64,000 nucleotides of DNA from a phage (GCA_022897995.1 GCA_022897995.1_4763.1); one strand, 5' to 3'; counted from the stretch's first letter, positions 9,029 through 37,354 are shown. The notes: generated by a model not told the origin, from the sequence alone. Program-made: numbers and translations.

Positions 9029-9559
9029 ATGTCTAAGTTATTGAATCGTAAGCGTAAAGCACAACGACACAAAGAACGATCTAAAAAGATTGCTATTGAA
9101 CTGGTTGAGCGTGAGGATAGCTATTTGTCTACTGGTCGTTTGTATACATTCCATGCATTAATTGATGACAAGCCAGTATTGCATAATCATGATTGCTTGG
9201 CACTGTTTCACGAGATCGAACCAATCCATCGTGAATGGGATGACAACAAAGCAAAAGGCCAATATTTCCTTACTTGTTCGTGTGGCCATGCTGGATGTGC
9301 TGGATATTGGGAACCTGTTACTATCCGTGAGAAAAATGATACTATTCAATGGGTCGCCCGTGCCCGCGATGGTTATGATAAAGGGGTTGATGGTACTGGT
9401 GATAACGTAGTTTACTTTAATCGTGATTGGTATTATATGGCGCGATGTATGATCCTGTTTTATCTTGACTCGATGCCGTATGAATATTTCAGTTTCCAGA
9501 ATGGGACCGAACTTACTGGCAGAGAATGGTCTGAATACATTCGAAAAAATTTAAAATAA
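9029..9559 (+). CDS. hypothetical protein
   Basis: 177-aa ORF, GTGAGGTGA upstream; basic N-terminus, Cys/His cluster CSCGHAGCAGY. Confidence 0.5.
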   Translation: MSKLLNRKRKAQRHKERSKKIAIELVEREDSYLSTGRLYTFHALIDDKPVLHNHDCLALFHEIEPIHREWDDNKAKGQYFLTCSCGHAGCAGYWEPVTIREKNDTIQWVARARDGYDKGVDGTGDNVVYFNRDWYYMARCMILFYLDSMPYEYFSFQNGTELTGREWSEYIRKNLK

Positions 9560-9563
9560 ACGC

Positions 9564-9592
9564 TTGACGGGGATCGCGAGATCCCCTATACT
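9564..9592 (+). promoter_or_regulatory. early promoter with GGGGATC/GATCCCC stem-loop (PeSL)
   Basis: TTGACG 9564-9569, 17-nt spacer, TATACT 9587-9592. Confidence 0.55.
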
Positions 9593-9634
9593 ATATTCAT
9601 CAAGACGAGATACAACTTTACAGGAGAATCAAAT

Positions 9635-9787
9635 ATGTGGACTTTACTGATTTGGGAAACTGAAAACGCACAAGTAGAAATCCGTGAATACGAATACCTA
9701 AGCCCAGCTTATCTATTGGCATCTCGCGGTGGTTACTATAAAGCGCAGATTGTAAACGAGTTTGGGGTAATTGAATATGAGTTCTGA
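9635..9787 (+). CDS. small hypothetical protein (50 aa)
   Basis: ATG 9635 after AGGAGAATCAAAT; overlaps nrdG start. Confidence 0.3.
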   Translation: MWTLLIWETENAQVEIREYEYLSPAYLLASRGGYYKAQIVNEFGVIEYEF

Positions 9788-10280
9788 TACATACGGCAAA
9801 CTACGCTATGCCGATATTAAAGATTGTGATATGGTTAACGGTGAGGGAGTGAGAGTCTCCCTTTACGTCACCGGATGTTCACACGCATGTGATGGTTGCT
9901 TTAATTCCAGTCTACTCAATCCTAAGAACGGGGAAACATTCACCGATGATACAATGGGATTGATTCTGGATCTGCTTAGACCTGATTTTATTCAGGGGCT
10001 AACATTCTTAGGTGGCGATCCACTGTATAAACGCAATTTAAAGGGTGTACAACGGATCATCGATGAAGTAAAATCATGGATGCCAAATAAAGATATTTGG
10101 CTATGGTCTGGTTATACCCTTGACCAATTGAATGATGAGCAAAGAAAAATTGTAGAATCAGTTGACATGTTCATCGATGGGCGTTATATTAAAGATATGC
10201 CAACGAAGAAGCCGTGGCGGGGGTCTGACAATCAAGTACAATACAAGATTGTTAATAGTATTCCAGTGAAAATTATTTGA
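9777..10280 (+). CDS. nrdG: anaerobic RNR activating enzyme NrdG
   Basis: Radical-SAM CSHACDGC cluster and VNGEG motif; downstream of nrdD. Confidence 0.85.
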   Translation: MSSDTYGKLRYADIKDCDMVNGEGVRVSLYVTGCSHACDGCFNSSLLNPKNGETFTDDTMGLILDLLRPDFIQGLTFLGGDPLYKRNLKGVQRIIDEVKSWMPNKDIWLWSGYTLDQLNDEQRKIVESVDMFIDGRYIKDMPTKKPWRGSDNQVQYKIVNSIPVKII

Positions 10281-10290
10281 GGTGATTATT

Positions 10291-10818
10291 ATGGAATGGG
10301 AAGTAGGTAAAATCTACAATATTAAATGCGAAGTGTCGAAAGCTGAACTGACTAAGTTTTCACCATCCATTAACAATGCGATTCTTGATTTGATTGGTGA
10401 TCGTTCGTTTAAGGTAGAAGCACTTGATGCTGATGGTGATGTTAGTAAAATTACCATTATTGGCGAAGAGACCGAGCCGATGACGTTACGAGAATCCCCT
10501 ATTAATTTTCATGGTGTTTGGTTTTGGTCGGGTGAGCGTCGTTTCTTTACCGAAGTTACTATTGAACCTAAGATTCCAGAATCGGAAGAAAAAGAAGAAG
10601 ACCTAACTTTAGAGCGTCTGGGTCTGCTTATGGAAGCCTACGACATTCAGTTGATCGATAAGATGGGGTTACATAATAGCATTGCCAAAATTACTACCCT
10701 AGAAGGTATTAAGAGCGTACTGGATGGTATGCCTAGCCGGATCGGTGCTATCCGCGAATACAAGCAAACTCGCGACCGTATGATCCAATTAGAATCACGT
10801 ATCAAAAATGAGAGATAA
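10291..10818 (+). CDS. member of tandem paralogue array (MEWEVGKIY... type)
   Basis: WE.GK.Y N-terminus, IGD..FKV, ERRFFTEV, helical C-terminus. Confidence 0.55.
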   Translation: MEWEVGKIYNIKCEVSKAELTKFSPSINNAILDLIGDRSFKVEALDADGDVSKITIIGEETEPMTLRESPINFHGVWFWSGERRFFTEVTIEPKIPESEEKEEDLTLERLGLLMEAYDIQLIDKMGLHNSIAKITTLEGIKSVLDGMPSRIGAIREYKQTRDRMIQLESRIKNER

Positions 10819-10822
10819 TATT

Positions 10823-11287
10823 ATGAAATGGGAAGCTGGTAAGACCTATGCGTGGAAAGATGTAAAAGATGCAAACCAATTTTTTAAATGGTATGATGTT
10901 GATTATTTGAAATATCTGAGATTACCGTTTAAAGTTGCGTCGGTTGATGCGAAAAAAGGATACGTGCGGTCTGTATATCTTCATGATGGAACTTATATGA
11001 GTTCAACCGATGTAGGTCTATCTTGTTGGTTTCTGGATCATGACCGTAGCAGATTTGAAGAAATTATTATTCCAGAAGAATCTAAACTGATGGACCTTCT
11101 CAAGTTGGCGATGGATAATTATAAAATTCGCTTTGAATGCAAATCACATGCGGCTATCGGTGCTAACGCCTTGCGTCATATCTCCAGTTTTGAAGAGTTG
11201 AAAGATTTTCTTGACAAAATGCCGGAAAGGGTGCAAGCTATACAGGAAGCAGAGAAAGCATTAAACGAACTTGATAAAATCGGTTAA
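10823..11287 (+). CDS. member of tandem paralogue array
   Basis: MKWEAGKTYAWKD; same architecture as neighbours. Confidence 0.55.
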   Translation: MKWEAGKTYAWKDVKDANQFFKWYDVDYLKYLRLPFKVASVDAKKGYVRSVYLHDGTYMSSTDVGLSCWFLDHDRSRFEEIIIPEESKLMDLLKLAMDNYKIRFECKSHAAIGANALRHISSFEELKDFLDKMPERVQAIQEAEKALNELDKIG

Positions 11288-11299
11288 GGGGAATATATT

Positions 11300-11848
11300 A
11301 TGAAATGGGAAATTGGTAAAACTTACACTTGGAAAGATGAAAACGCTAAAACTGAGTTTATTACTAACGTAGCAGGTGATCTTTCTCCACTTAACAGCGA
11401 TATTAGTGCAGCTATTGGTGACAAGCCATTTACCATCATCGAGATCGAGGGTAATGGTTGGATTGATGCAATAGAGCTAGACGGTGTTTATCATACGGCG
11501 AAAACGGCTACAGGAAAAGACATTTGGACGTCAACATATTTGTTTAGTCCATTTGATAGAAAATATTTTCGTGAAGTTGAAACAGTGAAAGAACCAGAAG
11601 AAAAGGTGAACGATGATTCTAAGATCGTTGGACAGTTGAAACGTCTGTTTAGTAGTCGTTATGGCCTGACGATGGTTAAATTTGGCGAAGCAAATGAAGG
11701 TAAAACCTTTGAACGTTTCGATGATTTTATTGCAGCACTTGACAAGATGGACGAAATCATGCAAGATCGCCAGAAGATTAAAGATCTTCAAAAAGACATT
11801 AAACGTCGTGAAGTTGAATTTTTGATCGGTAAAGAGCGAGGTTGGTAA
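11300..11848 (+). CDS. member of tandem paralogue array
   Basis: MKWEIGKTYTWKD, IGDKPFTIIEIEG...DGVYH, DRKYFREVE. Confidence 0.55.
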   Translation: MKWEIGKTYTWKDENAKTEFITNVAGDLSPLNSDISAAIGDKPFTIIEIEGNGWIDAIELDGVYHTAKTATGKDIWTSTYLFSPFDRKYFREVETVKEPEEKVNDDSKIVGQLKRLFSSRYGLTMVKFGEANEGKTFERFDDFIAALDKMDEIMQDRQKIKDLQKDIKRREVEFLIGKERGW

Positions 11849-11849
11849 T

Positions 11850-12332
11850 ATGTTTGTTGTTGGTATGACCTATCAGTGGAAAGATTATAAAACAAGAGAA
11901 GATTTTGCAAACTCTAGCGTTGCAAATGATGCAATAGCAGAGTTTATCGGCGACCGTCCATTTAAAGTTATTGCGTTTGATCACCATGAACCAGATATCG
12001 ATTATGTTTCTGTGATTGAAATTGATGGCACGGTATACCCCTGTCGCAATGTTGATGATGTACGGGAATACGCGCACAACTGGTTTTTGCAATCAGAAGA
12101 ACGTTATTTTAAAGTGGTATCGGCAGAACTGACTACTGATGCAATGTTGGAACAATTTTTCAACAACTACGAAGTTTCTGTACGTCGATATGGTGAAGAG
12201 GAAGTATTTAAAATTGATGACTATAATCAGTTTAAACGAGTATTCGCCACTAAGATCCAACGTGATATTGAACGCGAGAAGCGCATCAAGGAACTGGAAG
12301 AAGAACTTGAAAGATTAAAGGCCGAGAAATGA
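11850..12332 (+). CDS. member of tandem paralogue array
   Basis: MTYQWKDYK, IGDRPFKVIAFD, EERYFKVV, coiled-coil C-terminus. Confidence 0.55.
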   Translation: MFVVGMTYQWKDYKTREDFANSSVANDAIAEFIGDRPFKVIAFDHHEPDIDYVSVIEIDGTVYPCRNVDDVREYAHNWFLQSEERYFKVVSAELTTDAMLEQFFNNYEVSVRRYGEEEVFKIDDYNQFKRVFATKIQRDIEREKRIKELEEELERLKAEK

Positions 12333-12598
12333 TCGAGATATACGGCATACCGAAAGAGGCGTATCATTGTTATGGTTGTATTGGTGCAATGAAGCTACTG
12401 GATGATCTGGGTATTCCGTATACACTTAAACCAGTATTCAAGCAGGTCGGGGTTGACATTATTCCCGACCGTGATATGATTGAAGAACTGGCGGGGAGGC
12501 TGAACTCAAAGAGCCTCCGATTTGTATACCCCCAGATATTCATTGACAACGAGCACATTGGAGGCTATAAAGAACTGAGGGCTATTTATGATTATTGA
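12329..12598 (+). CDS. nrdH: glutaredoxin-like protein NrdH
   Basis: CYGC redox motif and VYPQIFIDNEHIGG glutaredoxin signature. Confidence 0.65.
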   Translation: MIEIYGIPKEAYHCYGCIGAMKLLDDLGIPYTLKPVFKQVGVDIIPDRDMIEELAGRLNSKSLRFVYPQIFIDNEHIGGYKELRAIYDY

Positions 12599-12746
12599 GA
12601 ATTTAGTTTCGGTGTTCATTATTGCTTTATTTGCTATAATGGCTTTACCGTTGAAGACGTGTAAACACTGTAACGGAACAGGATTGCGCGGTGATGGGTG
12701 TTGCGCTCATTGTCACGGATCTGGTAAAGTAAGTATCATTAAGTAA
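12588..12746 (+). CDS. 52-aa membrane-anchored DnaJ-type zinc-finger mini-protein
   Basis: Hydrophobic N-terminus then CKHCNGTG and CAHCHGSG (two CxxCxGxG repeats); below the ORF-track size cut-off. Confidence 0.35.
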   Translation: MIIENLVSVFIIALFAIMALPLKTCKHCNGTGLRGDGCCAHCHGSGKVSIIK

Positions 12747-12767
12747 TTCTTGAGTGAGGAATATATT

Positions 12768-13055
12768 ATGTTAGTACACAATGCAATCGCACACATGGTT
12801 TACTCTCGATTTGGGTGCATGGAAGAAATCAATATTACCGACGCGGATTTAGATCTGATGCAAGTCGAAGGCCAGACATATCTGAAAAATAACGGCGTGA
12901 ATATCGGTAAAGCGCGTGTGCGTGAATTGTTGGTTGAATATATTCTCTCTGAATTTGGCATTAGTGCTTTCGGTGTGAAAGAGATTGCACCGAAGCGCGA
13001 AATTTCTGATAAAATGATCAAGAAATGCCAGAAAGCACGACGTAAGGGTTTCTAA
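12768..13055 (+). CDS. hypothetical protein, translationally coupled to downstream NTPase
   Basis: ATG 12768 after GAGGAA; stop overlaps next start (TAATG at 13053-13057). Confidence 0.45.
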   Translation: MLVHNAIAHMVYSRFGCMEEINITDADLDLMQVEGQTYLKNNGVNIGKARVRELLVEYILSEFGISAFGVKEIAPKREISDKMIKKCQKARRKGF

Positions 13056-14524
13056 TGAAGATTGAAACATTAATCGCATTGCCAGCGGCGGGGAAAACTG
13101 ATGCTATACTTTCCCACGTCCTAGAGACAAAAGAAAAAGCGGTTATTGCTTCGCCATCTCGTGTTTTAAGTGAACAATCTTACAATAAGTTTAAAAGAAT
13201 GGGCGGTCGTGCTGTCTTGATTGATAGTACCAGACTAAGAAGCCTTAAGACAGTGCAAGCGTCGATAATGCAATCAGTTAAAGATGGTGCTGATGTGATA
13301 TTCATTACACATACAGCGTTATCTAATATGGAACGTTCAAAAATGTTTGGTGAATATGCTCTTTACATTGATGAAGTTCCTCAACTGGTTGAATTTAATG
13401 AGTATCCGTTTAAGTCTAATCTTGAACTTATCACGAAGCATTGCGAACCAATCGCCGACGAATCGGAATGCCTACAGAACCTAGTTCTAAAAGACTCTGA
13501 GAAGGCCGCTATCAAAGAAAAGATAGAAAGTGCAAAGGATGGTACTGATATGATCGATTCTTCTCTTAGAGGGCTTTATGAGGCGTTATTAGAGAAGAAA
13601 ATCAACGTTATGGTAAAACATAACGAAGGACACCGGAAGAATGGGTCTAAAATTGTTTTCTTGAACGATAACAAACACGGTACGTGGGGAGACTTTAAAA
13701 AGGTTACGATAGCATGTGCAAATCTCTTTGATACATATAGCGGGAAGTATCTACGATACTATGCAAATTGCGATTTTGTTCCGAGTGCGCTAGAATCCAG
13801 ACTATATTTCAAAGAGTATAAAAATACAGATAGAGTTAATATCATCCTTATGACGGACTCTGAACGATGGTCGCGTCACCAGTCAGAAACAAACAATACC
13901 TTTGAACGTCTTGTTGATATGGTTAAAAATGAATGTGGTGATGATTTCATTTATACCGTGAATCGGGACCGTGAAGCGTGCACAAATGGTATTGGTGAGC
14001 GGATACCTTACGGATCTTATGGTCTTAACTCTTACATTCATCATAAAAATGTTGCTGTGATGTTCAGCTTTAACCCTCAACGATGGGAGATTGATATTTT
14101 AAAAGGTCTTGCTAATAGTTGCGATCTCCCAACAAACGAGTTTTTGAAAGCGCGTCATGTGTCTGATTATCTGGAACCAGCATTTCAATTATGTTTGCGT
14201 TGTAACCTGAGAGACAACGAGAGCAAGGAGAATGTTAATCTATATGTTCCTGATTGGGCGTTGGTGGATTATCTAAAAAAGTTTCTGCCTAATGCCAATG
14301 TAATAACAGACCGAATGATTCCGCTAGAATGTGGTGAGCGTAAAGGGCGAAAATCATTTAAAAAGATGTTCGACTTTAACGAGCAAGAGAATGCAAGATT
14401 TAACGGATTTAAGTACCGCATGAAGAAAAAAGGAAAAACTCTTGATCCGTCTGACGGTGAATCTGTAGAGATGGTTAGAGTGTGGATAACTAAGCAAAGA
14501 AAGTATAATGGCAATGGGGAATAG
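13055..14524 (+). CDS. P-loop NTPase, helicase-like
   Basis: Walker A ALPAAGKT (res 8-15), motif Ia-like VIASPSRVLSEQ, Walker B/DExx ALYIDEVPQ (res ~100-108); 489 aa; not placed in a known T4 gene. Confidence 0.55.
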   Translation: MKIETLIALPAAGKTDAILSHVLETKEKAVIASPSRVLSEQSYNKFKRMGGRAVLIDSTRLRSLKTVQASIMQSVKDGADVIFITHTALSNMERSKMFGEYALYIDEVPQLVEFNEYPFKSNLELITKHCEPIADESECLQNLVLKDSEKAAIKEKIESAKDGTDMIDSSLRGLYEALLEKKINVMVKHNEGHRKNGSKIVFLNDNKHGTWGDFKKVTIACANLFDTYSGKYLRYYANCDFVPSALESRLYFKEYKNTDRVNIILMTDSERWSRHQSETNNTFERLVDMVKNECGDDFIYTVNRDREACTNGIGERIPYGSYGLNSYIHHKNVAVMFSFNPQRWEIDILKGLANSCDLPTNEFLKARHVSDYLEPAFQLCLRCNLRDNESKENVNLYVPDWALVDYLKKFLPNANVITDRMIPLECGERKGRKSFKKMFDFNEQENARFNGFKYRMKKKGKTLDPSDGESVEMVRVWITKQRKYNGNGE

Positions 14525-14564: not shown

Positions 14565-15098
14565 GTGTCTGATTATGTAAACAATAAAGAGCTTTACGAA
14601 GAAATTTGCCGTTGGAAACAACGAATTGCAGCCGAAGGTCGACAAGTGCCAATGAGCAACCAAATCGGCCTAGCAATTATGCAAATCTCTAAAAATCTAT
14701 CACGGCGTTTTAACTTTTCTGGCTATAGTCAAACATGGCGCGAAGAAATGATCGACGATGGAATCGAAGCGGCGGTCAAGGGTTTGATTAATTTTGACGA
14801 GACAAAGTATAAAAATCCTCATGCTTACATCACGCAAGCGTGCTTTAATGCTTTTGTGCAGCGCATTAAAAAAGAAAGAACAGCGACAGCCGCAAAATAC
14901 AAATATTTTGTGCATCATGTATATGACGAACGCGACGCTGATATGTGCCAGATTGCGGATGAGGCATTCATACAGGACATTTACGATAAAATCAACAACT
15001 ACGAGGAATCGGTCAATAAACCGAAAGCGCCAAAGGTTGAAGATGTATTGACCGAGGAATTGCCTAGCCTGGACCAATTTTATGAGATTGAAAATTAA
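14565..15098 (+). CDS. 55: late-transcription sigma factor gp55
   Basis: [47 protein letters not shown] match remembered T4 gp55; GTG start. Confidence 0.85.
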
Positions 15099-15316: not shown

Positions 15317-15604
15317 ATGACTTACGATGAACAACATGACCAGATTGCAGTGAATGAAGTAGACAAAGTACAAGCAGAACTAGAGGCGAAAGCCGCTAAG
15401 AAAGCGGAAAAGATCTTGCGTAAGAACTCGCGAGAGATTGCACGCCTTAAGCGGTGGGCTGAACAAGCTATCATCGATGATAACCGTGATGCGTATATCT
15501 ACGCTATCGGAAAGTTACGTGATATCTACAAACAGCCACACACGCCAGAACTGCTTTCTGCTATGTGGATTAGTACACGGCAAACGGTATTAAGTATGCT
15601 GTAA
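15317..15604 (+). CDS. hypothetical protein
   Basis: 95-aa ORF, helical. Confidence 0.4.
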   Translation: MTYDEQHDQIAVNEVDKVQAELEAKAAKKAEKILRKNSREIARLKRWAEQAIIDDNRDAYIYAIGKLRDIYKQPHTPELLSAMWISTRQTVLSML

Positions 15605-15620
15605 TGGCTTTATAAGGGAG

Positions 15621-15650
15621 ACTCCGAAAGGGGTTTCCCTTTTTATTTTT
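15621..15650 (+). terminator. intrinsic terminator
   Basis: ACUCC-GAAA-GGGGU tetraloop hairpin followed by TTCCCTTTTTATTTTT. Confidence 0.55.
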
Positions 15651-15694
15651 CTATGATATAGTGAGAACATCTAAAACGAAGAGAGGAAGAGACT

Positions 15695-16720
15695 ATGAAA
15701 ATTTTGCTTTTGGGTGATCTGCATACTGGTATCGGTGGCGATGATCCGTGGGTGCATGAGTATATTCTTGATACCATCAAGAAAGCGGTTGAATACTCCA
15801 AAGAGCATAATATTAAGACATGGATTCAAACAGGGGATTGGTTTGATTGCCGCAAGGCGATAACTCATGAAACCATGAAATTTAACCGTACTAAGGTCAT
15901 CCCATTACTGGAAGAGGCTGGTATTACTTGTTATATCACGGTCGGGAATCATGATATGTTTAAACGAAACAAGATCCAGCCTAACGCGCCGCGTGAAGTG
16001 TTAAGCCAGTATGATTGCATTAAGGTTATTGATAAACCGGAAACAGTTACCTTTGATGGTGTATCATTTGATCTGTTCCCGTGGTTTTGTGATGACAATA
16101 AATCAGAGATTTTAGAGTTTATTCAAAACTCATTCAGCGAATATTGTGTAGGCCATTGGGAATTGTCCGGTTACTATTTCTATAAAGGGCTAAAATCCGA
16201 AGGTTATAGCGCGGACTTCCTCAAGAAATACCGTGAAGTGATTTCCGGTCACTTTCATACTATTAGTGATGGGGGTAACGTAACGTATATTGGCACACCA
16301 TACACACTAACGGCGGGTGACGAAAACGACCCGCGTGGGTTTTGGGTATTCGATACCGACACACACAAAAAAGAGTTTATCCAGAATGATAAAACTTATC
16401 ATGTGCGTATCACTTACCCGTCAGATGATAAAATCGACGTAGAACGCTATAAGGGGCTGAGTGTGCGTCTTATTGCAACGGTCGCTGATAATGGGTTGAC
16501 TAAGTTAGAAAGCGCGTTAGAGACCGTTGTACACAAGCTAAAAGTGGTCCATAAGCTGGAGAGTAGCGCATCACAGGAAACAGGTGTTATTGAAGTTAAA
16601 AGCACTATTCAGATGGTCTATGAATATCTGGAAGAACAAAACCTAGAACCGGAAGAACTTGCGGCGGTCAAGCGTATTTCTGATGAACTTTTAGCCGAAG
16701 TAAATAGCGCAAAAAGTTAG
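15695..16720 (+). CDS. 47: recombination nuclease subunit gp47 (SbcD/Mre11-like)
   Basis: 341 aa; phosphoesterase motifs LLGDLHTG, TGDWFD, GNHD, GHFH. Confidence 0.85.
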   Translation: MKILLLGDLHTGIGGDDPWVHEYILDTIKKAVEYSKEHNIKTWIQTGDWFDCRKAITHETMKFNRTKVIPLLEEAGITCYITVGNHDMFKRNKIQPNAPREVLSQYDCIKVIDKPETVTFDGVSFDLFPWFCDDNKSEILEFIQNSFSEYCVGHWELSGYYFYKGLKSEGYSADFLKKYREVISGHFHTISDGGNVTYIGTPYTLTAGDENDPRGFWVFDTDTHKKEFIQNDKTYHVRITYPSDDKIDVERYKGLSVRLIATVADNGLTKLESALETVVHKLKVVHKLESSASQETGVIEVKSTIQMVYEYLEEQNLEPEELAAVKRISDELLAEVNSAKS

Positions 16721-23566: not shown

Positions 23567-23598
23567 GAGTGTCTTTCGTAAATGAAGGAGTTTATATT

Positions 23599-24800
23599 AT
23601 GTATTTTCTGTCATGTGAGCGAGTGGGTGATAAGATCTACGAGCGTTATATTGATGATGCTGGACAAGAACAAGAGCGTTACGTTGAATATACGCCAACT
23701 TTATTTCATCATGCCGCGCCTGGTATGGTTACGAATTATAAAGATATCTATGGCAAGCCTTGCATTGCTAAAAAATTCCCATCTATGAACGAGGCCAACA
23801 AATGGCGTAAAAAGATGGGAGAAATGGGGCAAGAGGCGCTAGGGATGGATGATTTTATCATCTCCTATCTGTCTGATACGTATAAAGGCGAGATTCGATA
23901 TGACCGAAATAAAATCCGTGTAGCATGGGTTGATATCGAGGTCACTGCCCCAGAATTTCCTAAACCAGAAGAAGCGAAATATCCTATCGATGCAATTACG
24001 CATTATGATTCCGTACATGATCGTTTCTTTGTATTTGACTTGAAAGGAAAAAACGGTGAAATCTGGGAAGTAAGCAAGTCTATTCTTCGACCTGATATTG
24101 TAGAGCGTGTTGTTTATAACGTCTATGACACAGAAGATGAATTGCTGTTAGAATACATCCGATTCTTTGAGGAAAACCGACCCGTTGGTTTCACTGGCTG
24201 GAACACAGAAACATTCGATATTCCATATATCATTAAACGTATCAGTAATAAGTTCGGAAGTAGAACCGCTAACCGTCTAAGCCCGTGCGGTAAGATTAAA
24301 TCCCGAATCTCGCAGGATGATTTTGGCAACGAGCGTGAAGCATTTACGATCATGGGGATCGAAAGCCTTGATTATATTGACCTGTACAAGAAATTTAGCT
24401 TTACGACTCAACCAACATATGCATTAGATTATGTTGCTGAATATGAGACAGGAATCGGTAAGGTTGATTATGATGGTCCGTTAAAGAAATTGCGTGATGA
24501 CAACCATCAACTTTACATCGATTATAACATCGGCGACGTTGATCGTGTGCTGGCGATTGATAAAAAGCGTGGATTTATCGATCTTGTGTATAGTCTATGT
24601 TTCTATGCAAAGATTAAATTTAACCATGTTTATAACCCGATGAAAGTATGGGATGCTATTATCTTCGGATCTCTGAAAGCTGAGGGTAAAGTAGTACCGG
24701 AAAATAAGATACAGCCTAAGCAGACTTATCCGGGCGCATTCGTAAAAGAACCTGTGCCGAATGCTTACCGTTGGATGATGAGCTTTGACCTTACTTCCCT
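23599..24800 (+). CDS. 43: DNA polymerase gp43 (family B), exon 1
   Basis: N-terminal and 3'-5' exonuclease region co-linear with T4/RB69 gp43; ends ...SFDLTSL in motif A; ATG 23599 after AAGGAG. Confidence 0.85.
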
Positions 24801-25914
24801 AAACTGATATGGGGCTTTCACTGGTGACAGTGATCGAATAACCTGCTTAATTGCTGGGAAATCTCTAAGGAGACAATCAGCAGCAGTTGCATTTTGAGCT
24901 AACGTGTCTTATAATGTATATAGATATTGATATACATTGGAGGCGCGAGATGAAAGACATTTTAAGAAAGTACGAAATACATAACGAGGAAGCATTAAAC
25001 GACTACATTAAACTGGTGTCTAATCCGTATCAGGGTGAAGAATATTCCGAGGTGCATCATATATGCCCGAAGTCAATGTTCCCGGAATATCGGTTAGATA
25101 AATGGAATCTTGTTAGGCTTAAGTTTGAAGACCACGTCGAGGCACATCGGTTATTGTGCTTAATATTCAATAACGGTGAATGCAAGAGAGCATATGCTTT
25201 CATCTCTAGAGGATCTTATGACGATAAAGTGAAGGCGTTAACCAAAGATGCATTCGCTGGAGACAATAACCCAGCCAAGCGAGAGGAAGTTAGACTGAAA
25301 ATATCCGAAAACAAGACCGGAAAAGCCAGAACCGATATGAGCGGAAAGAAATATTTCGGGGCTGATGAGGACACTATACGAAAAGGTCTTGATTCTATGG
25401 CAGAAAAGCTAAAGAATACTGTTATCGTTAAGGATAAGGAAGGAAATCGGTTTAGAGTTAGTTGTGATGATCCTAGATATGTTTCCGGTGAGTTGGTATC
25501 ATTTAATACTGGCGAGAAACGCGAAAATTCAGCGTCTAAACGACCGGAAGTTATGAGTAAAATAATGTCAAAACGTAATGAAACTTATGCTAAATTTGCA
25601 AGTTTCACATTTGATGAAATGGTGAATTTTCTTGTTGAAGCACACAATTCAGGAAAAGAGATTTTTGGTAAGAAGAAACCTTTTGCTAAGAATTATAGCG
25701 GATACTGTAAGAGAACACCGTTTGATCAAAATGAGCTTAAAGATGCAGTTGTTCAACGACTATCGAAAGGGTAACGAACCGAGTAGAGTAGAATCAAGCG
25801 ATTCGAAATGGCAGGATTCTCTATGAGAATGTGATATAGTCTGATCTACATGGTGACATGTAGCAGTTCGCAAGAGAACGGGCGCGGGAGTAGCGAACCG
25901 CGCTGAACATAATG
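24801..25914 (+). mobile_element. group I intron with internal HNH endonuclease ORF
   Basis: Exon U 24800 / intron 3' G 25914; P 24849-24861, Q 24875-24884, R 25751-25762, S 25833-25841 core-like blocks; splicing restores DLTSLYPSIIRQ. Confidence 0.7.
24950..25774 (+). CDS. intron-encoded HNH homing endonuclease with NUMOD3-like repeats
   Basis: EVHHICPKS...N...EDHVEAH HNH core; GDNNPAKREEVRLKISE NUMOD3-like; GGAGG 24939-24943 then ATG 24950. Confidence 0.8.
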   Translation: MKDILRKYEIHNEEALNDYIKLVSNPYQGEEYSEVHHICPKSMFPEYRLDKWNLVRLKFEDHVEAHRLLCLIFNNGECKRAYAFISRGSYDDKVKALTKDAFAGDNNPAKREEVRLKISENKTGKARTDMSGKKYFGADEDTIRKGLDSMAEKLKNTVIVKDKEGNRFRVSCDDPRYVSGELVSFNTGEKRENSASKRPEVMSKIMSKRNETYAKFASFTFDEMVNFLVEAHNSGKEIFGKKKPFAKNYSGYCKRTPFDQNELKDAVVQRLSKG

Positions 25915-27391
25915 GTATCCATCAATCATCCGTCAGGTTAACATTTCGCCGGAAACAATCGCCGGATCTTTTGATGCTGCACCGATGCACGAGTATATCA
26001 ATAAAACTGCACCACGTCCGAGTGATGAGTATTCTTGCTCGCCTAACGGATGGATGTATCGAAAAGATATTCATGGTATCGTACCGATTGAGATTAAAAA
26101 GGTATTCGATCAGCGTAAGCAGTACAAAAACATGATGTTGGCGTGTGATCGCAATGCTGAACTCTGTAAAGCGATTCTACACGATGAAAATCATGTTTAC
26201 GGGGGAACCATTAGCTATAGCGTTGAAGTTCGTCACGACTTCGATGAAGCGTTTAAATCTATGCTTTCGGAATTAAGCAAAGATGCCTTAGAGAAATTGC
26301 TGGAAGAATGTAAAGACGAGTCGATCTTGTGCAATACAAACCAGCTTTCTCGAAAAGTTTTGATCAACTCCCTTTATGGTGCGTTGGGGAATCCTAAATT
26401 CCGTTTTTATGATCTCCGTAACGCTAGTGCGATCACCTTGTTTGGTCAGCTTGCAATTCAGTGGATTGAGCGTAAGATTAACGAATACTTAAACGAGCTT
26501 TGCGGAACAACCGATTTTGCATATGTTCGTTATTGTGATACTGACTCCGTTTATGTGCTGGTTAACAATGTTGTTGATAAGGTTGGCGGGGAAGACCGTT
26601 TCGACGATACCGAAAAACTTGTTGACTTCCTTGATAATTTCGGTAAACATCGAATGGAACCTATTATCGACAAGGGATATCGCGAGTTATGCGAGTACAT
26701 GAACAACTATGAGCACTTGATGTTTATGGACCGCGAGGCAATTGCTGGTCCTCCGTTGAAATCTGCGGGTATCGGTGGATTCTGGACGGGTAAAAAACGC
26801 TATGCTCTTAATGTTTGGGATATGGAAGGAACGCGCTTTGCTGAGCCTAAGCTAAAAATCATGGGCTTGGAAACGCAACGTAGCTCCACCCCTAAAGCAT
26901 GTCAGAAATCACTGAAAGAATGTATTCGCCGTATGTTGCAGGAAGGTGAAGAGTCATTGCAGGAATATTACGGTATTTTTGAGCAAGAGTTTAGAAAACT
27001 TGACTATCTTGAGGTTGCTGCGGTATCATCTGCAAACAACCTACAGAAATACAGCGATTCAAACGGGTATCCGATTAAGGGTTGTCCGTATGCGGTTAAG
27101 AGTGTATTGTGCTATAATCGTAATGCTCGAAAATTCGGACTAGATCCGATTCGTGAGGGCGAGAAGGTTATGATTGTACCGCTTAAAGACCGAAATCCGT
27201 TTGGAGAAATCTGTTTTGGTTGGTTGTCCGGTACTCGTATTCCGCCAGAAATTGAATCAGAGGTGTTAAAGTGGTTGGACTGGCCTTTGTTGTTTAATAA
27301 GACTTTCGTCAAACCACTGGAGAACATTACCACGGCTGCAAAGCTGCAATATGAAAAGGTGGCATCGCTTACGGACCTGTTTGACATTTAA
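25915..27391 (+). CDS. 43: DNA polymerase gp43, exon 2 (palm/fingers/thumb)
   Basis: YPSIIRQVNISPET..., KILINSLYGALGN, YCDTDSVYV (motif C) in frame from 25916. Confidence 0.85.
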
Positions 27392-35649: not shown

Positions 35650-35963
35650 TGCATGTATTTGCTGTATGTTATCGTGATAAAGACGGATTCTTTCAATACT
35701 CAGTGGACGCGAAAGGTCGCGTCCTAACTTGCGAAACACATGATGCTGCGTTAGCGTCAATGTGTGATCAGATAGATTATTGTGAGAGTCTATTGGCGGG
35801 TGAACCGAAATACAAGGTTGTGCCTAAAAGAAAATTTGGTATAATCCGGTCTTCTGAAATTGTTCGGGATGGTATCGAATATAAAATTCCTGAATATGAA
35901 AAAGAACGGGTACGGCGAGAACTCAATACTATCTGTGTTCGCAAGGTGAGGATTTTAGGATAA
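35649..35963 (+). CDS. hypothetical protein
   Basis: 104-aa ORF overlapping neighbours, directly upstream of dda. Confidence 0.4.
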   Translation: MHVFAVCYRDKDGFFQYSVDAKGRVLTCETHDAALASMCDQIDYCESLLAGEPKYKVVPKRKFGIIRSSEIVRDGIEYKIPEYEKERVRRELNTICVRKVRILG

Positions 35964-37354
35964 TGAGCAGAGTATTAACTTTCGATATGTTAACAGACGG
36001 GCAAAAACATGCTTTTGATGTTCTAATGAAACGCATTGAACAAAAGAAGCATACAACTGTCCGTGGTGCGGCGGGTACTGGTAAAACCGCAATGATGAAA
36101 TTCATTGTTCAGGAAATGGTCCGCCGTGGTGTAACTGGTGTGGTTTTGGCAACGCCTACCCACCAGGCTAAAAAAGTTTTGAGTAAAGCGGTAGGTCGTC
36201 AAGCATTTACTTTACATGCACTACTGCGACTAAACCCGACCAACTATGAAGATACTCAAGTATTTGAGCAAAAAGATACTCCTAAGCTAGATGATGTTCA
36301 GATCATCATTGTTGATGAAGCGAGTATGGTCGATAAGAAACTATTTGATATTCTCATGAAGAGTATCAACGGTCGAATTGTTATTATTGCCGTGGGTGAT
36401 CTGTACCAGTTACGACCAGTTGATCCGAGCGGTGCAACGTCGATCTCTCCTTTCTTCACCGATGAAAGGTTTCAGAATGTAGAACTTACAGAGATTAAAC
36501 GATCTAATGCGCCAATAATTGATGTGGCGACCGCTGTCCGTAATGGTAAATGGGTATTCGAAAAGCAGTGCGGTAACGAGGGTGTATTCCATAGCTCAAC
36601 TCTGCCGGAGTTTATGAAGCATTATTTCGAAACCGTTAAAACGCCGGAAGACCTTCTAGAAAACCGTATTCTGGCCTACACTAACAAGAGCGTCGAAAAA
36701 CTCAATGAAATTGTACGTAAGCGCGTTTATAACACCGATGAACCAGTGATTGTAGATGAAATTCTGGTTACTCAGGAACCATTGATCGAATATCTGCGAG
36801 ATGAACGCGGGAAGAAGATCCCCAATGTTATTTTTAACAATGGTGAGATGATCCGAGTTAAAGAGGTCATCCCGCGTGAATTTACATTACGTTGCACGGG
36901 GGTAGATCCGCAACCAGTTTTAGGCTATACTCTGAAAGTGGAAAGCGTCGATGATGACGAAGACAAAGAAATCCTAAATCAGAAAGTCGGTTTAGATGCG
37001 GTCGGAATCACTACAGATAAACCAGATTTAGTAGAAATCAACATTCTGACAGAACAACGTCAGAAGAACATTTTCTCTATCTATCTGAATACGGTCGCCG
37101 GACAATATCGCGAAATGAAGAAAGAGAATCCAAAATTTAAACCAGATTGGGATTCATTCTGGACGATGAAGCGTATGTTCTTGAATGTAAAAGCATTACC
37201 AGCTTGCACCATTCATAAGTCACAAGGGATCAGCGTAGACCGCGTGTTCCTGTATACTCCTTGCATGTGTACAGACAATGTTGACTTTGAATTGGCAATG
37301 CAGTTATTATATGTGGGTGTTACCCGTGCGAGGTATCGAGTAGACTATATTTGA
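35963..37354 (+). CDS. dda: DNA helicase Dda (SF1B)
   Basis: FDMLTDGQKHAF, Walker A GAAGTGKT, LATPTHQAKKVL, IIVDEASMVD, YVGVTRAR match remembered T4 Dda. Confidence 0.9.
   Translation: MSRVLTFDMLTDGQKHAFDVLMKRIEQKKHTTVRGAAGTGKTAMMKFIVQEMVRRGVTGVVLATPTHQAKKVLSKAVGRQAFTLHALLRLNPTNYEDTQVFEQKDTPKLDDVQIIIVDEASMVDKKLFDILMKSINGRIVIIAVGDLYQLRPVDPSGATSISPFFTDERFQNVELTEIKRSNAPIIDVATAVRNGKWVFEKQCGNEGVFHSSTLPEFMKHYFETVKTPEDLLENRILAYTNKSVEKLNEIVRKRVYNTDEPVIVDEILVTQEPLIEYLRDERGKKIPNVIFNNGEMIRVKEVIPREFTLRCTGVDPQPVLGYTLKVESVDDDEDKEILNQKVGLDAVGITTDKPDLVEINILTEQRQKNIFSIYLNTVAGQYREMKKENPKFKPDWDSFWTMKRMFLNVKALPACTIHKSQGISVDRVFLYTPCMCTDNVDFELAMQLLYVGVTRARYRVDYI

Follow-up and report, generated by a model that had tools for sequence, protein, structure and literature searches.

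A predicted superfamily 2 helicase-like ATPase encoded next to gene 55.2 in RB49-type relatives of phage T4

What is the helicase-like protein encoded between nrdH and the late sigma factor gene 55 in RB49-like phages, and is the small gene that overlaps its start a dedicated partner? These questions were raised by a stretch of 64,000 nt of phage DNA (GCA_022897995.1), hereafter the window, in which all positions are counted from the first letter. It comes from a Krischvirus (RB49-like; 97-98% nucleotide identity by megablast). An initial annotation, made from the sequence, had described there a cassette in which a protein of 95 residues is translationally coupled to a helicase-like P-loop NTPase of 489 residues. 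Both open reading frames (ORFs) and their TAATG overlap lie where that annotation had placed them, and their position between nrdH and gene 55 was verified by matches to Glutaredoxin and phrog_234 and by the annotation of RB49. Here, we propose that the larger gene encodes an intact two-domain ATPase of helicase superfamily 2 (SF2), most likely an accessory DNA motor, and that the smaller one encodes a homologue of T4 gp55.2, a frequent neighbour of this ATPase and not its dedicated subunit.

Motifs, fold and relatives of the 489-residue protein

Translation puts the Walker A motif, the motif Ia segment and the Walker B stretch ALYIDEVPQ (residues 102-110) of the large protein at the places where the initial annotation had read them (Table 1), D106 and E107 following K14 by 92 residues. 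We assessed conservation in 34 T4-like sequences, which are 33-74% identical to the window protein, and in two sets of 124 and 65 diverse relatives (~20% identity). Invariant in the T4-like set are P10, G13, K14 and T15, then S33, L38 and S42, D106, E107 and P109, and, further along the chain, G323 and N325, Q378, R382 and R386, followed by V398, P399 and D400. The subset K14, D106, E107, G323, N325, Q378 and R382 (plus R386) is still invariant in the two diverse alignments, and A222, in the motif III-like strand, is conserved in at least 90% of the diverse relatives. Profile matches to the PDB align the region of motif Ia with the PTreLa.Q segment of DEAD-box proteins, RecG, PriA and reverse gyrase, and the patterns GxGK[ST], DE[VIL]P and Q...R...R are seen in nearly every representative. 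Careful alignment, which might have dissolved the Walker motifs, found them invariant. Since full-length homologues occur in 244 phage records and 1330 representative clusters, and the catalytic residues do not vary, the ORF is not a product of chance.

An AlphaFold2 model built from the alignment of 34 sequences (predicted local distance difference test, pLDDT, 87.9; predicted template modelling score, pTM, 0.77) has a RecA-like domain starting at residue 1, interrupted by an alpha/beta insertion, then a second RecA-like domain at approximately residues 256-420 and a basic helical tail. The 350 C-terminal residues, in which the initial annotation had recognised nothing, can now be divided into the insertion (112-215), the second RecA domain with motifs IV-VI, and the tail, which may serve to bind DNA or a partner. 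Walker A and B motifs on a RecA-like domain, and a second such domain carrying the Q..R..R of motif VI, are the marks of SF2, and both are present. As judged from its sequence, the protein is an SF2 ATPase with both domains intact, and strong purifying selection acts on it. The earlier reading as a helicase-like P-loop NTPase is thereby upheld and extended to SF2 motifs I-VI and two RecA domains.

Its place within SF2 is suggested by structure. Over the whole protein, two methods of structural comparison rank XPD, Rad3, DinG and CasDinG, which are 5'-to-3' SF2 DNA helicases, as the best matches, and XPD and DinG are the only PDB matches that align over more than 300 residues (314-370). Like the window protein, they have two RecA domains, arranged in the same way, and the first of these contains an insertion between motifs II and III, so that the insertion of the window protein may, given this position, be equivalent to the Arch domain of XPD and DinG. 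The window protein differs from both in being ~100-250 residues shorter. A broad profile of the family found only generic matches to motifs I and Ia in the PDB (DDX52, Mss116, RecG, reverse gyrase, PriA, XPB and UvrB), and hence no subfamily can be assigned by sequence. We file the protein as an unclassified SF2 family which, from the model, probably works like a minimal XPD or DinG. UvsW (SF2) and Dda (superfamily 1B) of T4 are not homologous to it beyond the generic RecA core. The window has a Dda-like gene of its own (35963-37354), plus gp41-like and primase genes.

The protein matches phrog_2467, a family of 'unknown function', along its full length (5.4e-175) and barely passes the Pfam DEAD threshold (residues 11-130, 3.3e-6, 27.4 bits for a cut-off of 26); neither it nor the 95-residue protein has a match in NCBIfam. 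By tblastn, 238 of the 244 phage records with homologues cover at least 80% of the protein. These records include Krischvirus, the Pseudotevenvirus RB43, Aeromonas phages of several genera, and phages of Proteus, Serratia, Erwinia, Yersinia, Cronobacter, Enterobacter, Citrobacter and Klebsiella. In every record among the matches listed the homologue is annotated as 'hypothetical'. The RB49 record labels the two genes '55.2, gp55.2 conserved hypothetical protein' and 'RB49ORF044c, hypothetical protein'; the latter is 99.8% identical to the window protein over its full length and occupies the same locus between 55.2 and 55. It is thus the same gene in a sister phage, with no difference, and neither RB49ORF044c nor PHROG 2467 has a functional annotation anywhere. 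The initial annotation had failed to assign the protein to a T4 gene, and indeed T4 has no counterpart: there is no Tequatrovirus (T4-type) match among the tblastn phage records, and the locus of the T4-type phage RB55 reads 55.2-55.1-55, without the helicase gene.

Beyond the T4-like phages, a profile run against 1.84 billion representatives brought up 1330 relatives, 768 of which score 1e-10 or better, and Pfam ResIII is matched by 30 of 65 relatives. Many of the relatives are fusion proteins of 750-890 residues, with a probable primase-polymerase domain, from phages, plasmid-like contigs and islands. Approximately 60 of 146 representatives (P0044-P0189) are 700-900 residues long. Most of these long relatives are extended at the C-terminus. 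The extension has, ~190 residues past motif VI, an almost universal hhLDxD motif, together with invariant acidic residues D74 and D158 (alignment A4), a D76 conserved in at least 90% and an NS.S...R.RV.IP segment. It gives weak matches to PriCT_1, PriCT_2, RepB_primase_C and a PHROG 'DNA primase', and it is a probable archaeo-eukaryotic primase-polymerase domain. One relative, P0123, has the reverse order, with an N-terminal PrimPol-like part (IIVFDFDEDED and GSGHVYV) followed by the helicase, and its phage matches are solely T4-like phages. Distant relatives are found in a 10-kb contig that also encodes a resolvase and a type I restriction-modification (R-M) system, in a phage contig where the fusion gene opens a rightward operon, in an island of ~11.5 kb between two tRNA genes, and, as the stand-alone copy P0051, in a 146-kb phage contig (L011). 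These contexts fit mobile-element replication genes. In a plasmid collection, tblastn with one long relative gave only three weak matches, to Sinorhizobium megaplasmids. Since the longer members are fused to primase-polymerase-like domains, the ancestral job of the family was probably DNA unwinding for the priming or replication of mobile elements.

The 146-kb contig holds an observation of its own. After the gene of P0051, 1.2 kb (9498-10672) lack a gene call in the contig annotation and are rich in repeats, with at least five copies of the direct repeat ATACCCC...AAAATATCT as well as inverted repeats. This stretch may be an origin or a regulatory region.

A family of this kind has been predicted before. 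Kazlauskas et al. 2018 (PMC5862659) described archaeo-eukaryotic primases of the All3500 family fused to domains 'remotely similar to SF2 helicases', and predicted SF2 helicases, pVOG1685/9714, common to some T4-like phages and to such primase fusions. Our relatives resemble these: primase-like parts are fused to the helicase at either of its ends, and one relative matches Herpes_ori_bp. They differ in that the helicase is N-terminal and the primase-like part C-terminal in most of the fusions, whereas the published order is Prim+zf-CHC2+helicase (PMC5862659). By the published description and this pattern, PHROG 2467 probably belongs to the pVOG1685/9714 helicases. An origin-binding role like that of UL9 was considered but is not supported for this branch of the family: only one of 65 relatives matches PF02399 (1.4e-3), and the top 50 BFVD matches include no herpesvirus protein.

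A motor for phage replication or recombination, and the alternatives

What would such a protein do in a T4-like phage? We consider, with a probability of about 0.6 for the reading as a whole, that it is an active monomer-type SF2 ATPase and most likely serves phage replication or recombination as an accessory DNA helicase or translocase driven by ATP. ATP would be bound between the two RecA-like domains, by K14 and D106/E107 of the first and the arginine fingers Q378/R382/R386 of the second, and its hydrolysis would ratchet both domains along a nucleic-acid strand. The protein would translocate on single-stranded DNA and unwind duplexes, the insertion acting as an arch or pin; since the insertion occupies the position of the XPD/DinG Arch, 5'-to-3' strand separation would be the most likely mode. 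RB49-type phages and many other T4 relatives would thus have a stand-alone extra helicase alongside gp41, Dda and primase, probably expressed together with the upstream nrdH-55.2 gene cluster. More speculatively, it might assist DNA replication, recombination, restart, or the removal of obstacles or R-loops.

Several observations weigh against this proposal. The structural match to XPD and DinG is modest (template modelling score, TM, ~0.45-0.5). The iron-sulphur (Fe-S) domain typical of XPD, a 4Fe-4S domain placed between motifs Ia and II, was not found, residues 42-105 of the model being ordinary RecA elements only. A conserved cysteine quartet is also missing: the only cysteines invariant among the T4-like sequences are C130 and C380, and both vary in the wider alignments. 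The Fe-S cluster is missing from CasDinG and some DinG proteins too. Pfam DEAD_2 and Helicase_C_2 are matched neither by any of 65 relatives nor by the window protein. The hhalign comparison of the family profile with E. coli DinG was negative (probability 0.6%), so that a by-eye alignment of motifs V, Va and VI to the DinG signature is a lead only. PDB searches with the single sequence and with the T4-like profile returned no match, and the sequence links to known helicases span motifs I to II only. The primase identity of the extension in long relatives was confirmed neither by Pfam (weak PriCT_1 and RepB_primase_C) nor by a PDB profile search (no match); the T4-like copies are not adjacent to a primase, and T4 fares well without the gene. 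Intact motifs do not guarantee unwinding, since many SF2 proteins that have them translocate or remodel only, for example E. coli IEE (PMC9943667). Finally, searches of the literature yielded no experimental work on this protein.

The alternatives depend in part on the small upstream gene, which the initial annotation had not tied to any T4 gene. By homology, it is the counterpart of T4 gene 55.2 in RB49-type phages, already known as such. Its product matches Pfam DUF7570 (3.9e-28, 97.8 bits, cut-off 27), phrog_1475 (2.2e-32) and, in a tblastn search against T4-type phages, gp55.2 of RB55 (41.7% identity, 6e-12), in agreement with the annotation of RB49. For the small ORF, therefore, the locus does hold a confident homologue of a T4-type product, an outcome that the initial annotation had named as one that would undo its reading. 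The core RE(L/I)LV.YIL.EF.I.AFGV is kept, as is the syntenic place upstream of gene 55, but the protein is 13 residues shorter than T4 gp55.2 at the C-terminus, and the next gene is the helicase gene instead of 55.1. T4 gp55.2 is a DNA-binding inhibitor of E. coli topoisomerase I that alters supercoiling (Mattenberger et al. 2015, PMC4396842). This inhibition is known for the T4 protein only, and the RB49-type copy is a putative inhibitor.

One might speculate that gp55.2 and the helicase form a module, in which coupled translation would fix the proportion of helicase, and the helicase would act on underwound DNA or R-loops, opening the former for initiation and clearing the latter. The TAATG overlap and the effects of gp55.2 on DNA (PMC4396842) speak for this idea, as does part of the gene order. 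When we searched 11 helicase-bearing loci from different genera with a profile of 55.2, a 55.2-like gene was found upstream on the same strand in all 11, and in six it directly abuts and overlaps the helicase gene (RB49, RB43, PM2, PX29, AS-zj and avDM6). Yet, two to five unrelated small genes intervene in the other five (MHG19, IT22, Muldoon, Aes012 and 44RR). In all 11 the start of the helicase gene overlaps the stop of the preceding gene by 1-20 nt, whichever gene that is, even one for a 168-residue protein in 44RR. The overlap thus reflects ordinary compact T4-style packing and does not speak for a dedicated partnership. Moreover, 55.2 occurs in 1093 phage records and the helicase in 244, the T4-type order 55.2-55.1-55 does without the helicase, and the distant helicase relatives have no 55.2-like neighbour in the contexts examined. 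The distribution and the adjacency in only six of 11 loci led us to reject an obligate 55.2-helicase cassette, and we regard the looser module as unlikely.

The two genes are conserved syntenic neighbours, the data do not support a dedicated pair, and the gp55.2 homologue would accordingly be no subunit of the helicase. Of the cassette described by the initial annotation, the overlap and the adjacency in six loci stand, but the separation of the genes in five and the occurrence of 55.2 without the helicase leave the unit weakly supported. The comparison with other genomes that it had proposed gave this divided answer: always upstream, adjacent in only six of 11. Co-translation in RB49-type phages is likely. 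The helicase gene is the last before gene 55 in all the sampled loci. The 168-residue protein of 44RR (L006, 2498-3004) carries a GGADGADD-type motif and is not a homologue of 55.2.

A bolder form of the replication hypothesis would make the family a distinct class of primosomal helicases: monomeric XPD-shaped SF2 motors without an Fe-S cluster, serving primase-polymerases in phages, plasmids and islands as their dedicated unwinding partners. The free copy of T4-related phages, made with gp55.2, would then initiate or restart replication independently of gp41/gp59, by opening DNA that is underwound or R-looped. We hold this to be a quite doubtful extrapolation.

The gene might instead be an accessory gene of a hyperplastic region, serving conflict between phage and host or between phages through counter-defence or superinfection exclusion, or it might be left over from a replication gene captured from a mobile element, with no part in phage replication. 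The region from nrd to 55 is variable, small ORFans coming and going there, and the gene is not in T4-type phages; the Foldseek matches include the defence helicase Hna (9yhn, TM 0.46), and relatives are common in islands and plasmid-like contigs beside R-M genes. But PADLOC matched no defence-system model, its sole match (0.009) being to an unrelated DRT accessory model, and the protein has no nuclease or other effector domain. Besides, the gene is kept at the same position and at full length across many genera (31-74% identity to the window protein), unlike conflict genes of fast turnover. These points make such an origin or role rather improbable.

The fixed place just upstream of the late sigma factor gene would suit an ATPase of DEAD-box or NPH type that is an RNA helicase or is tied to transcription, with phage transcripts or late transcription as its target. 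However, gene order is conserved in T4-like phages whatever the function. As to the DEAD-box class itself, the protein was tried and rejected as a member: Walker A starts at residue 8, and the seven residues before it leave no room for a Q motif, motif II reads DEVP and not DEAD, and motif III reads (I)ACAN, with CAN in the place of SAT. In addition, matches to DEAD-box proteins align one domain only, those over the whole protein are to DNA helicases, and relatives are fused to primase-like domains or found in mobile-element replication contexts. We judge a role in RNA metabolism to be very unlikely. Finally, a degenerate helicase fold kept as a catalytically dead scaffold is hardly conceivable, since the invariance of every catalytic residue across about 1300 representatives excludes a degenerate ATPase.

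Locus structure and other features of the window

The coordinates of the two genes, their flanks and the features of the large protein are given in Table 1. The two reading frames share one base, common to the TAA of the 95-residue ORF (13053-13055) and the ATG of the large one (13055-13057), and a Shine-Dalgarno sequence, AAGGG, lies at 13043-13047, 7-8 nt 5' of that ATG. The 95-residue ORF has an alternative, longer TTG start at 12750, but its ATG is preceded by GAGG at 8-9 nt and is the start annotated in RB49.

Table 1. Features of the locus, in positions of the whole 64,000-nt window.
Feature	Position	Strand	Basis or remarks
nrdH (flank)	12329-12598		Pfam Glutaredoxin; annotated nrdH in RB49
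95-residue ORF, T4 gp55.2 homologue	12768..13055	+	ATG start; DUF7570; RB49 gene 55.2
TAATG stop/start overlap	13053..13057	+	read from sequence
489-residue predicted SF2 helicase-like ATPase, RB49ORF044c / phrog_2467	13055..14524	+	ATG start
Motif I / Walker A, ALPAAGKT, residues 8-15 (K14)	13076..13099	+	translation
Motif Ia, VIASPSRVLSEQ, residues 30-41	13142..13177	+	translation
Motif II / Walker B, DEVP, residues 106-109 (D106, E107)	13370..13381	+	translation
Alpha/beta insertion, residues 112-215 (104 residues), in RecA1 between motifs II and III	13388..13699	+	model secondary structure
Motif III-like strand, VTIACAN	13703..13723	+	translation, alignment
Motif V/Va region, SYGLNSY ... 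NVAVMFSFNP (G323, N325)	14015..14077	+	alignments
Motif VI, QLCLRCNLR (Q378, R382, R386)	14186..14212	+	alignments
Basic helical C-terminal tail, residues 421-489	14315..14521	+	17 K/R vs 10 D/E; E445, W477 invariant
13-bp hairpin with GAAA loop, spanning the helicase stop codon	14515..14544	+	-20.1 kcal/mol, z -3.6
Gene 55, late sigma factor (flank)	14565-15098		phrog_234, 4.6e-63

We also looked for signals of expression. Sigma-70-like sites are not enriched over shuffled sequences (11 vs 7.4 +/- 3.1), and no T4 late promoter TATAAATA was found near the two genes. The hairpin at the end of the helicase gene stands 20 nt before the start of gene 55 and is not followed by a U-tract; the record of the Serratia phage Muldoon has a terminator annotated at the equivalent place.

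Other observations in the window concern its small and mobile genes. Between nrdH and the 95-residue ORF, a 52-residue ORF (12588-12746, RB49ORF046c) encodes an N-terminal hydrophobic helix followed by two CxxCxGxG zinc-finger motifs of the DnaJ type, and matches phrog_3931 (function unassigned). Four tandem paralogous ORFs of 159-182 residues, 22-29% identical, lie between nrdG and nrdH (10282-12332); each of them opens with a motif like W-E-x-G-K-T-Y-x-W-K, and they correspond to RB49ORF048c-051c, the third being shorter than in RB49. The DNA polymerase gene 43 is split into ORFs at 23569-24807 and 25985-27391 by an insertion of ~1.18 kb, which contains a 295-residue ORF with an HNH motif (24887-25774) and matches no Rfam intron family. 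Of 67 related phage records, 12 contain the whole insertion; phage Phi1, for example, lacks it. RB49 has an HNH/AP2 endonuclease gene, ORF040c, between a-gt.4 and gene 47 (L001, 6641-7195), which is missing from the window (15604-15695); this is another mobile-endonuclease polymorphism among Krischviruses.

Significance for T4-related phages

The 489-residue protein is probably an uncharacterised member of a computationally predicted family of virus and plasmid SF2 helicases: a good target for biochemistry, and not a new kind of system. For PHROG 2467 and RB49ORF044c we propose that 'hypothetical protein' be replaced by 'SF2 helicase-like ATPase', and for the 95-residue gene the annotation 'gp55.2-like topoisomerase I inhibitor'. 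Replication and recombination of T4 are a textbook system, yet some 240 of its sequenced relatives carry an extra intact SF2 helicase that T4 itself lacks. The phage version is small and looks soluble, and from its study one would obtain the first biochemical account of a family that numbers over 1000 representative clusters, and might learn how a motor resembling XPD works when it has no Fe-S wedge.

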